A stretch of 10,352 nucleotides of DNA from a virus (lineage: Duplodnaviria; Heunggongvirae; Uroviricota; Caudoviricetes), in the IMG/VR virus record IMGVR_UViG_2695420596_000008, positions 1 through 10,352 of that record; one strand, 5' to 3'. Below the pieces are notes generated by a model, which saw only the letters and a program-made list of their open reading frames with translations, was not told where the DNA came from and searched no databases. Shown here one piece after another: positions 7,119 through 7,165 of this stretch (positions are counted from its first letter, which is position 1; each line of letters starts with the position of its first letter). A program made the position numbers and the translations under genes.

Positions 7119-7165
7119 TGGCTTTTCAGCCACGTAGTCGAGTGTTCGACGTTGTTTAAAGAGCC
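7119..7165 (-). promoter_or_regulatory. nutL (boxA, spacer hairpin, boxB)
   Basis: Minus strand: boxA GCTCTTTAAACAAC (plus 7152-7165), spacer hairpin GTCGA-ACAC-TCGAC (7137-7150), then TACG and boxB TGGCT-GAAA-AGCCA (7119-7132). A near-identical layout occurs at nutR (9317-9362). Confidence 0.7.

Follow-up and report, generated by a model that had tools for sequence, protein, structure and literature searches.

What does an additional hairpin between boxA and boxB do in the N-utilization (nut) sites of a lambdoid phage, and does it set such sites apart from those already on record? The question is raised by a stretch of 10,352 nucleotides from a virus of the Caudoviricetes (IMG/VR record IMGVR_UViG_2695420596_000008, positions 1 to 10,352; hereafter the window), which is the early region of a mosaic Shiga toxin (Stx)-type lambdoid prophage and contains the gene for the antiterminator N as well as two candidate nut sites. 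N-dependent antitermination governs delayed-early expression in Stx phages, and thereby Q and Shiga toxin. We consider it very probable that the two sites are nutL and nutR of this prophage and that they serve antitermination by N and host Nus factors, with the spacer hairpin being a structurally constrained insertion.

Two nut sites with a hairpin between boxA and boxB

The two sites are composed as follows:

7119..7164, minus strand: complete nutL site (boxA, spacer hairpin, TACG, boxB), between the pL-like promoter and N
7151..7164, minus strand: extended boxA of nutL, GCTCTTTAAACAAC, close to the rrn-type GCUCUUUAACAA and conserved in the alignment of 22 sites described below
7137..7150, minus strand: spacer hairpin of nutL, GTCGA-ACAC-TCGAC
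7133..7136, minus strand: TACG linker of nutL, between spacer hairpin and boxB
7119..7132, minus strand: boxB of nutL, TGGCT-GAAA-AGCCA, with a GNRA tetraloop
9318..9362, plus strand: complete nutR site (boxA, spacer hairpin, TACG, boxB), between the cro stop at 9309 and the cII start at 9448
9318..9332, plus strand: boxA of nutR, GCTCTTTGTAACAAC
9333..9344, plus strand: spacer hairpin of nutR, GGAC-ATTC-GTCC
9345..9348, plus strand: TACG linker of nutR
9349..9362, plus strand: boxB of nutR, TCGCT-GAAA-AGCGA

Both sites carry a boxA-like element (lambdoid consensus CGCUCUUUA) 5' of boxB and lie at the canonical positions of nut sites, i.e. one between pL and N and the other in the cro-cII interval, upstream of tR1. 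They have an 18-mer in common, TACGTNGCTGAAAAGCNA, which matches twice as compared to 0.01 matches expected (200 shuffles). A covariance model of the layout, the seed of which included both sites, returns nutL with 67.4 bits and nutR with 57.8 bits, all other matches in the window having E > 0.9. Rfam has no match at either site at E <= 1, its sole real hit in the window being Lambda_thermo. The gap between the 8-nt core of boxA and boxB comprises 23-24 nt and holds the conserved hairpin, and the boxB loop has 4 nt; both sites thus differ from the λ/P22 type with its short, unstructured spacer and its pentaloop boxB. The nutL region is present in 763 of 5,426 complete E. coli genomes.

The initial annotation of this DNA had quoted both sites as they are read here, apart from a start at 7165, which takes in one extra G as nutL begins at 7164. 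It had also pointed out that the two boxB stems differ by a compensatory exchange, and this is indeed a change from G-C to C-G at position 2.

Covariation of the spacer hairpin and boxB

In the minimum-free-energy fold of either isolated site boxA (GCUCUUU) can pair with the loop and the 3' arm of boxB (GAAAAGC), which leaves only the spacer hairpin intact, and the z-scores for folding in context are modest, at about -1.3. As this alternative fold competes energetically, the two-hairpin fold draws on comparative evidence rather than on energy alone. The complementarity of boxA and boxB may be fortuitous, given their two consensus sequences, or it may reflect a competing structure that is relevant to the idea of "alternative NUT RNA structures" taken up below.

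Viral contigs were scanned twice. The first scan required only GCTCTTT...GCTGAAAAGC, demanding neither TACG nor a hairpin, and gave many loci, and the second gathered sites with GACAA. In each genuine site of the scanned loci a hairpin directly adjoins the invariant TACG. About ten different spacer stems retain pairing (among them GTCGA/TCGAC, GGAC/GTCC, GGTGA/TCACC, GGTGAA/TTTACC, GGACG/TGTCC, GAAGAT/ATCTTC, GGCC/GGCC, GATTCG/TGAATC and GAAGGT/GCCTTC), and six boxB stems were found (TGGCT/AGCCA, TCGCT/AGCGA, CAGCT/AGCTG, TAGCT/AGCTA, AGGCT/AGCCT and TGGCC/GGCCA). In relatives of nutL the loop of the spacer hairpin varies (CTC, ACTC, ATC, ACAT, GCAC), but the stem is kept.

In an alignment of 22 distinct sites with a tetraloop boxB 96.4% of the cells are paired and two-sided changes occur in 7 of the 10 pairs. 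The covariation score is 0.497 as compared to 0.126 in shuffles, none of 500 shuffles reaching the observed value, and slid controls yield 0-1 covarying pairs. The 5-bp stem of boxB is paired in all 22 sites (100%), with two-sided changes in three of its five pairs, and the loops are GAAA or GCAA. TACG is invariant in 22/22 rows, and is likewise present in H-19B, epsilon34, SPN9CC, Pantoea and Tatumella; the outer G-C pair of the spacer hairpin is also invariant. Moreover, G-U wobbles are found on the transcribed strand only (GGACG/TGTCC, GGTGAA/TTTACC, GGGC/GTCC), which argues for an RNA structure and not for a DNA palindrome.

Independent loci were fetched by N-protein homology alone, with an alignment of four N sequences as query. 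All three loci obtained in this way from distant relatives (Pantoea conspicua, Ca. Pantoea formicae and Tatumella terrea) contain boxA, GGTGA-NGGA-TCACC, TACG and a GAAA boxB upstream of N, and the corresponding N-based scan of viral sequences returned almost only near-identical copies. In the boxB of Tatumella, TGGCC-GAAA-GGCCA, the loop-closing pair has changed from U-A to C-G around an unchanged GAAA; as the closing pair varies around a constant loop of 4 nt, the loop is a tetraloop, and the natural GCAA variant fits the GNRA pattern as well.

On these comparative grounds, selection acts on the structure of the spacer hairpin as well as on that of boxB. This is what the initial annotation had proposed from the two sites of the window, and the comparison with homologous phages that it had called for, i.e. 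a covariance model of their nut regions, finds the hairpin retained and the changes compensatory in the 22-site alignment. Its reading of the boxB loop as a true GAAA tetraloop is borne out by the Tatumella closing pair and the GCAA variant, and the extra stem-loop between boxA and boxB that it had described as conserved is kept in the relatives, including the three loci found via N alone.

Relation to known nut systems

The layout is not new: it is the same as in phage H-19B, for which it dates back to 2000 (Neely & Friedman), and the nut sites of the window are ordinary for this phage group and already annotated. The initial annotation had called the architecture unusual, which does not hold, since H-19B has the same dyad and TACG and the sequences themselves are annotated in the GenBank entries AP000422 and NC_011976. 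The identification of the sites thus adds little to what is on record. What is added is modest, namely, first, comparative proof that the H-19B-type hairpin and UACG are conserved, with covariation, in several enterobacterial genera and, second, a rule for the association of boxB loops with N proteins.

H-19B (GenBank AF034975) has the same order of boxA, spacer dyad, TACG and 5-bp boxB stem. Its nutR reads CGCTATTTTCACAAT GGAC-ATTC-GTCC TACG TCGCT-GACAA-AGCGA, its nutL ...ACAAC GATTCG-AATA-TGAATC TACG GCGCT-GACAA-AGCGC. The hairpin (GGAC-ATTC-GTCC), the TACG and the boxB stem (TCGCT/AGCGA) of the H-19B nutR are identical to those of the nutR in the window, and the two N proteins share their C-terminal end, ...CLPNVA[IL]YAAGYRKSKQLTAR. 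The systems differ, however, in the boxB loop, which is a GACAA pentaloop in H-19B and GAAA in the window, in the arginine-rich motif (ARM) of N (GNSRSRRRERLKAKALA vs. GTAASRRRARRANLQ, the latter corresponding to residues 9-23 of the 90-aa N of the window), in the spacer stem of nutL (GATTCG/TGAATC vs. GTCGA/TCGAC), and in the boxA of nutR, which is degenerate in H-19B (GCTATTTT; also given as GCTATTTTCACAAT) and of the consensus type (GCTCTTT) in the window, in spite of the H-19B-like cro that flanks it. The window, in other words, has the architecture of H-19B (spacer dyad, TACG linker), but not its specificity (GACAA together with GNSRSRRRERLKAKALA). H-19B N reportedly needs NusA, but neither NusB/S10 nor boxA; as the boxA elements of the window are far nearer to the consensus than that of H-19B, this independence may not carry over.

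Counterparts of both sites are found in VT2-Sakai/Sp5 (GenBank AP000422), where they are annotated as "putative N-utilization leftward/rightward". From boxA to boxB the nutR of VT2-Sakai is identical to that of the window, and its nutL differs only in the loop of the spacer hairpin (CTC there, ACAC in the window). In the Salmonella phage epsilon34 (NC_011976) TCGCTGAAAAGCGA is annotated as "putative NutR - boxB", and the gene 43 system of this phage combines, as in the window, a GAAA tetraloop boxB with hairpin and TACG and a tetraloop-class ARM, FNGSAAGRRRERRAALQ. Its nutL spacer stem is that of H-19B (GATTCA/TGAATC), its nutR boxA is degenerate and its N has 120 aa as compared to 90 aa in the window. 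Villafane et al. 2008 (PMC2629481) had already inferred a novel BoxB specificity for the epsilon34 N homologue, as its first 27 residues diverge.

P22 gp24 belongs to the same N_peptide family, and the P22 nut site has a boxB stem of the same type (GCGCT/AGCGC), the boxA GCTCTTTA and a single-stranded spacer of ~10-11 nt, which corresponds to the spacer of the window minus the hairpin. It contains, however, neither a spacer hairpin nor TACG, and its loop is the pentaloop GACAA. The nut sites of λ follow the same logic, i.e. boxA, spacer, boxB and an ARM-containing N just downstream of nutL, but the spacer is unstructured and has 8-9 nt, boxA is one U shorter, one base is extruded from the loop, which is a GNRNA pentaloop, and the ARM is not detectably similar to that of the window N. 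The λ boxB loop takes a GNRA-like fold (PMC12027372). The short, unstructured spacer and the pentaloop that the initial annotation had stated for λ and P22 agree with the reference genomes, in which the spacers are unstructured and have about 8-11 nt, with the pentaloops GAAAA/GAAGA in λ and GACAA in P22.

Two classes of boxB loop and N ARM

The boxB loop tracks the ARM of the N protein encoded next to it. The tetraloop class comprises 119 GAAA loci (24 distinct N; a one-residue variant of the ARM in 2) and 2 GCAA loci, all with the ARM G[ST][AS][AS]xRRR[AE]RRxxLQ, and covers at least 11 distinct ARM sequences and N proteins with an identity to the window N down to ~35-40%. The pentaloop class comprises 66 GACAA loci (24 distinct N), all with an ARM of the H-19B type (RRRERLKAKALA; ...RRRERLKA.A...). 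Among all nutL-N pairs in the fetched loci there were zero crossovers between loop and ARM, the 185 pairs with GAAA or GACAA being free of exceptions. The association also holds in epsilon34, the N of which has an H-19B-like body, yet a tetraloop-class ARM together with GAAA boxBs. SPN9CC has an ARM of the H-19B class and GACAA at nutR; its nutL boxB is different, its loop being perhaps the pentaloop GUCAA.

In effect, the tetraloop boxB equals the boxB of P22 and H-19B (GCU-GACAA-AGC) minus the C, and that C is the base that is extruded in the P22 complex. On the protein side R3, R14-R16 and R18 are invariant in N, and R3, R15 and R18 are invariant in both ARM classes; the H-19B N ARM mutants R3H, R15C/P and R18P abolish nut-dependent antitermination (PMC3526286).

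As far as can be judged from sequence comparison, what separates the window from H-19B is thus the specificity class, the two being sister classes, and not the architecture. The variant mode of N-nut recognition suggested by the initial annotation therefore stands if it is taken narrowly to mean a specificity class of its own, in which the loop tracks the ARM, but falls as a new architecture. The exception-free association of tetraloop or pentaloop with the ARM predicts which Stx/lambdoid phages are able to cross-activate each other's early operons.

Three further loci deserve mention. One viral contig (L033) has a GCAA loop in nutL (minus-strand offset 3460) and a GAAA loop in nutR (plus-strand offset 2198), and two residues of its N ARM are different (RRRAHRAELQSL vs. 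RRRARRANLQSQ); loop and ARM may co-vary even inside the tetraloop class. In one GACAA locus from the viral contigs the ARM, MTRRTAFKGSSAARRRERLKAQAIAQ, is tetraloop-like in its first half (GSSAA) and pentaloop-like in its second half (RLKA.A), which suggests that the two loop types are told apart by the residues following RRR[AE]R. Finally, a 3.5-kb contig (JAJXBQ010000280.1) encodes an N that is 98% identical to that of the window and is filed under a metagenome-assembled genome of Segatella copri; it is most likely a mis-binned contig of an E. coli phage.

Proposed mechanism and the role of the spacer hairpin

In the mechanism that we favour, RNA transcribed from pL and pR would recruit N and host Nus factors to RNA polymerase, resulting in readthrough of tR1 on the right and of the tL terminators on the left. 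The extended boxA (GCUCUUU[A/G]nAACAA) is nearly identical to the consensus, being nearer to rrn and P22 than to H-19B, and would bind NusB/NusE. The N-terminal arginine-rich helix of N would bind boxB, i.e. the 5-bp stem with its true GNRA tetraloop, as suggested by the strict association of loop and ARM and by the λ and P22 paradigms, and the distinct ARM class (G[ST][AS][AS]xRRR[AE]RRxxLQ) would place this N in a specificity group apart from that of the H-19B/933W/HK97 N proteins. The spacer hairpin, a dyad of the H-19B type the pairing of which is borne out by the covariation, would have to remain paired. Once folded, it leaves 10-11 nt single-stranded (AACAAC and UACG), which is the length of the P22 spacer, and thus behaves as an extruded insertion. 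Contacts with NusA and/or N most likely involve its invariant flanks, i.e. the outer G-C pair and UACG.

Several points weigh against this reading. The set of sites used for covariation was in part chosen by requiring a hairpin next to TACG, although this is mitigated by the N-anchored loci and by the first scan, for which no hairpin was needed; many loci are close relatives, so that there were fewer independent events than the cell counts imply; and the spacer stem of the Tatumella nutR has just 3 bp (GGC-CCCC-GCC). The pairing of the tetraloop with its ARM is correlative. In the H-19B dyad single-arm changes are said to inactivate NUT and compensatory changes to restore it, and deletion of the dyad reportedly has little effect, which speaks against an essential positive role and suggests that the structure matters only against misfolding. 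Finally, in a folding model with 150 randomised arms the mean probability of boxB formation, P(boxB), is unchanged (nutL 0.52-0.55 vs. 0.50 for the wild type; nutR 0.77-0.85 vs. 0.83). The test of the hairpin as an "insulator" in equilibrium folding was hence essentially negative, as no protection of boxB by the hairpin was seen with 150 random arms at either site.

The alternative that survives best is a hairpin that has no function of its own, i.e. a historical insertion the arms of which stay complementary since an unpaired arm could mispair with boxA or boxB, and we give it somewhat less than an even chance. When the 5' arm is broken by design in silico, the predicted P(boxB) drops from 0.50 to 0.18 in nutL and from 0.83 to 0.60 in nutR; a compensatory change brings it back and deletion of the hairpin is neutral, which parallels what was published for H-19B. 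Moreover, severe losses of P(boxB) at nutL are rarer with paired than with unpaired random stems (3% vs. 13-15%). The P22-like length of the spacer after extrusion of the hairpin fits this explanation as well, and so does the mention of "alternative NUT RNA structures" in the title of Neely & Friedman 2000 (Mol Microbiol 38:1074), a study that, by its title, has the H-19B spacer dyad as its subject and the conclusions of which reportedly point the same way. However, most random replacements of a single arm do not impair the predicted folding of boxB, and avoidance of misfolding thus looks like weak selection. Likewise, it leaves both the invariant UACG and the invariant outer G-C pair unexplained, as well as the persistence of the insertion in every lineage sampled from this N clade.

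These invariant features would be accounted for if the hairpin and UACG formed a positive RNA module, e.g. a docking site for NusA (S1/KH domains) or for regions of N outside the ARM, or a shield against Rho over a rut (Rho utilization)-like spacer, which would alter the requirements for host factors. We regard this as possible, but rather unlikely. In phages of E. coli, Salmonella, Pantoea and Tatumella, which comprise at least three classes of boxB loops, the hairpin is conserved with covariation, and neither its outer G-C pair nor UACG changes. In H-19B the spacer and boxB of nutR are protected by N with NusA/NusG, and the initial footprint of Rho lies on this spacer (Muteeb et al., PMC3526286). 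In λ the target of NusA-SKK is the single-stranded spacer (PMC2724277), which is largely replaced by the hairpin in the window. In addition, nut arrays of a satellite-island lineage (see below) retain hairpin and TACG beside their GAAA boxBs, the stems being different ones that are likewise compensated (GAAGAT/ATCTTC, GAAGGT/GCCTTC), and the λ-type boxBs in the same arrays lack them. Against a positive module stand, apart from the reported deletion of the H-19B dyad, the sequences of loop and stem, which vary freely and would limit recognition to the shape of the hairpin plus UACG.

A combined version is similarly doubtful. In this version the hairpin-UACG element would be a positive nut module that is recognised in trans (by contact with NusA or N, or as a Rho shield) and could alter host-factor needs, and the GNRA-tetraloop boxB with its RR..LQ ARM would represent a distinct recognition mode that does without an extruded loop base; a one-nucleotide indel, GAAA to GACAA, together with a swap of the ARM would then switch the N specificity between co-circulating Stx phages.

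That the dyads act as DNA, i.e. as protein-binding palindromes or small terminators, is highly improbable: although a consensus scan flags the opposite strand of the nutL spacer dyad (7137-7150, plus) as terminator-like, G-U (G-T) wobbles occur on the nut-sense strand only, the stems are wholly different between nutL and nutR and among phages and hence unfit for a single DNA-binding protein, the transcribed strand has no T-run after the hairpins, and positions and neighbours are those of canonical nut sites. The terminator candidate itself, GTCGAGTGTTCGAC followed by GTTGTTTAAA, was rejected as it is the antisense image of nutL plus the A-rich complement of boxA.

Gene map and mosaic structure of the window

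The genes of the window are arranged in the order int, xis, exo, bet, gam, kil, cIII, then N, cI-like, cro, cII and O, with the following features around the nut sites:

6748..7020, minus strand: N gene, 90 aa, the cognate antiterminator, with an internal ATG at 7020 behind GGGAGG
7211..7239, minus strand: pL-like promoter TTGCCA-17-TAAAGT, from a consensus scan only, ~45 nt upstream of nutL
8962..8258, minus strand: gene for a cI-like repressor
9076-9309: cro gene, with its stop at 9309
9392..9409, plus strand: hairpin TATGCGT-TTCC-ACGCATA in the tR1 region downstream of nutR
9448-9744: cII gene

VT2-Sakai has an annotated pL in a position analogous to that of the pL-like promoter, and the identical hairpin sequence of the tR1 region is labelled "putative rho dependent terminator for pR transcript" there. 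The N of the window is 100% identical to that of VT2-Sakai, and nutL is of the VT2-Sakai type as well. In Pfam the protein matches PF25694 (N_peptide) with 111 bits as compared to a cut-off of 27.9, and H-19B N falls, like P22 gp24, in this same family. In contrast, the cI-cro immunity module of VT2-Sakai is unlike that of the window, which is of the H-19B/BP-4795 type; by sequence comparison the segment cI-cro-cII-O is ~95% identical to H-19B and BP-4795. A mosaic junction lies at the cro stop and the nutR boxA, 9305-9320, being H-19B-like upstream (cI, cro) and VT2-Sakai-like from boxA onward. As the sequence is of the VT2-Sakai type from the nutR boxA onward, nutR matches the resident N of the VT2-Sakai type, which is encoded 2 kb away.

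The leader of N (7021-7118) contains a long stem at 7033-7104 on the minus strand (-39.8 kcal/mol, z = -4.65), which recalls the RNase III stem of the λ N leader. Its outer arms, CUUUGGGAU... and ...AUCRCCAAAG, the latter located just before the Shine-Dalgarno sequence, are kept in H-19B, epsilon34, Pantoea and Tatumella, and the interiors differ in size among these relatives, from ~20 to 130 nt. The Rfam hit mentioned above, Lambda_thermo, i.e. the λ cIII thermoregulator, is a full-length match in cIII (5558-5616, minus strand, 88.5 bits, E = 4.9e-21). A match of 10145-10242 to snR191, a yeast snoRNA, is a false positive with 36.5 bits, below the gathering score of 46, and results from iteron-like direct repeats inside the O gene, the O protein repeating IPQNEGGSPKMRD.

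Nut arrays upstream of alpA in a satellite-island lineage

Nut-like elements also occur as tandem arrays of 3-5 units on the sense strand between int and alpA in integrase-alpA islands that resemble phage-inducible chromosomal islands (PICIs). They are located at 4700-5310 in locus L332, 2500-2890 in L334 (E. coli 789, NZ_CP010315), 1514-1830 in L095 and 1430-1545 in L093, and L332 and E. coli 789 show the array in its full context, the island of E. coli 789 being located at tRNA-Thr. The order is tRNA-Thr, the integrase gene, a promoter-like site and GCCCT-GGAGA-AGGGC with a λ-type GNRNA loop, followed by boxA, hairpin, TACG and a GAAA boxB, and then by GCGCT-GACAA-AGCGC with a boxA-like element. 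The long version additionally contains an H-19B-nutL-like unit and the exact boxB of the λ nutR, GCCCT-GAAAA-AGGGC. A long hairpin, alpA (Pfam Phage_AlpA, 71 bits) and the AntA and Ash genes complete the order. The arrays thus combine three to four boxB specificities, i.e. the λ type (GGAGA or GAAAA), the GAAA tetraloop with hairpin and TACG, and the P22/H-19B type (GACAA), and most units have a boxA.

Of the 80 fetched loci with an AlpA homologue only six contain the array, namely those that share the query AlpA at 100% identity. On this sample the array is confined to one lineage and does not characterise AlpA islands in general. The spacer between int and alpA matches 663 E. coli genomes, 32 of them at a coverage of at least 80% and, judging from rows sampled down the ranking, roughly half at a coverage of 52-60%. 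Our literature search found no paper that links PICIs to antitermination or nut. Helper phages activate the transcription of alpA, and the search for the phage-encoded inducer was still under way in 2018 (Fillol-Salom et al. 2018, PMC6092414). As arrays of several specificities precede alpA, N proteins of several types from helper phages may antiterminate into alpA, and the layout of the arrays suggests, as a hypothesis, N-dependent antitermination into alpA in this island lineage. The arrays may matter more than the nut sites of the window, as they suggest how helper phages switch on alpA in these satellites.

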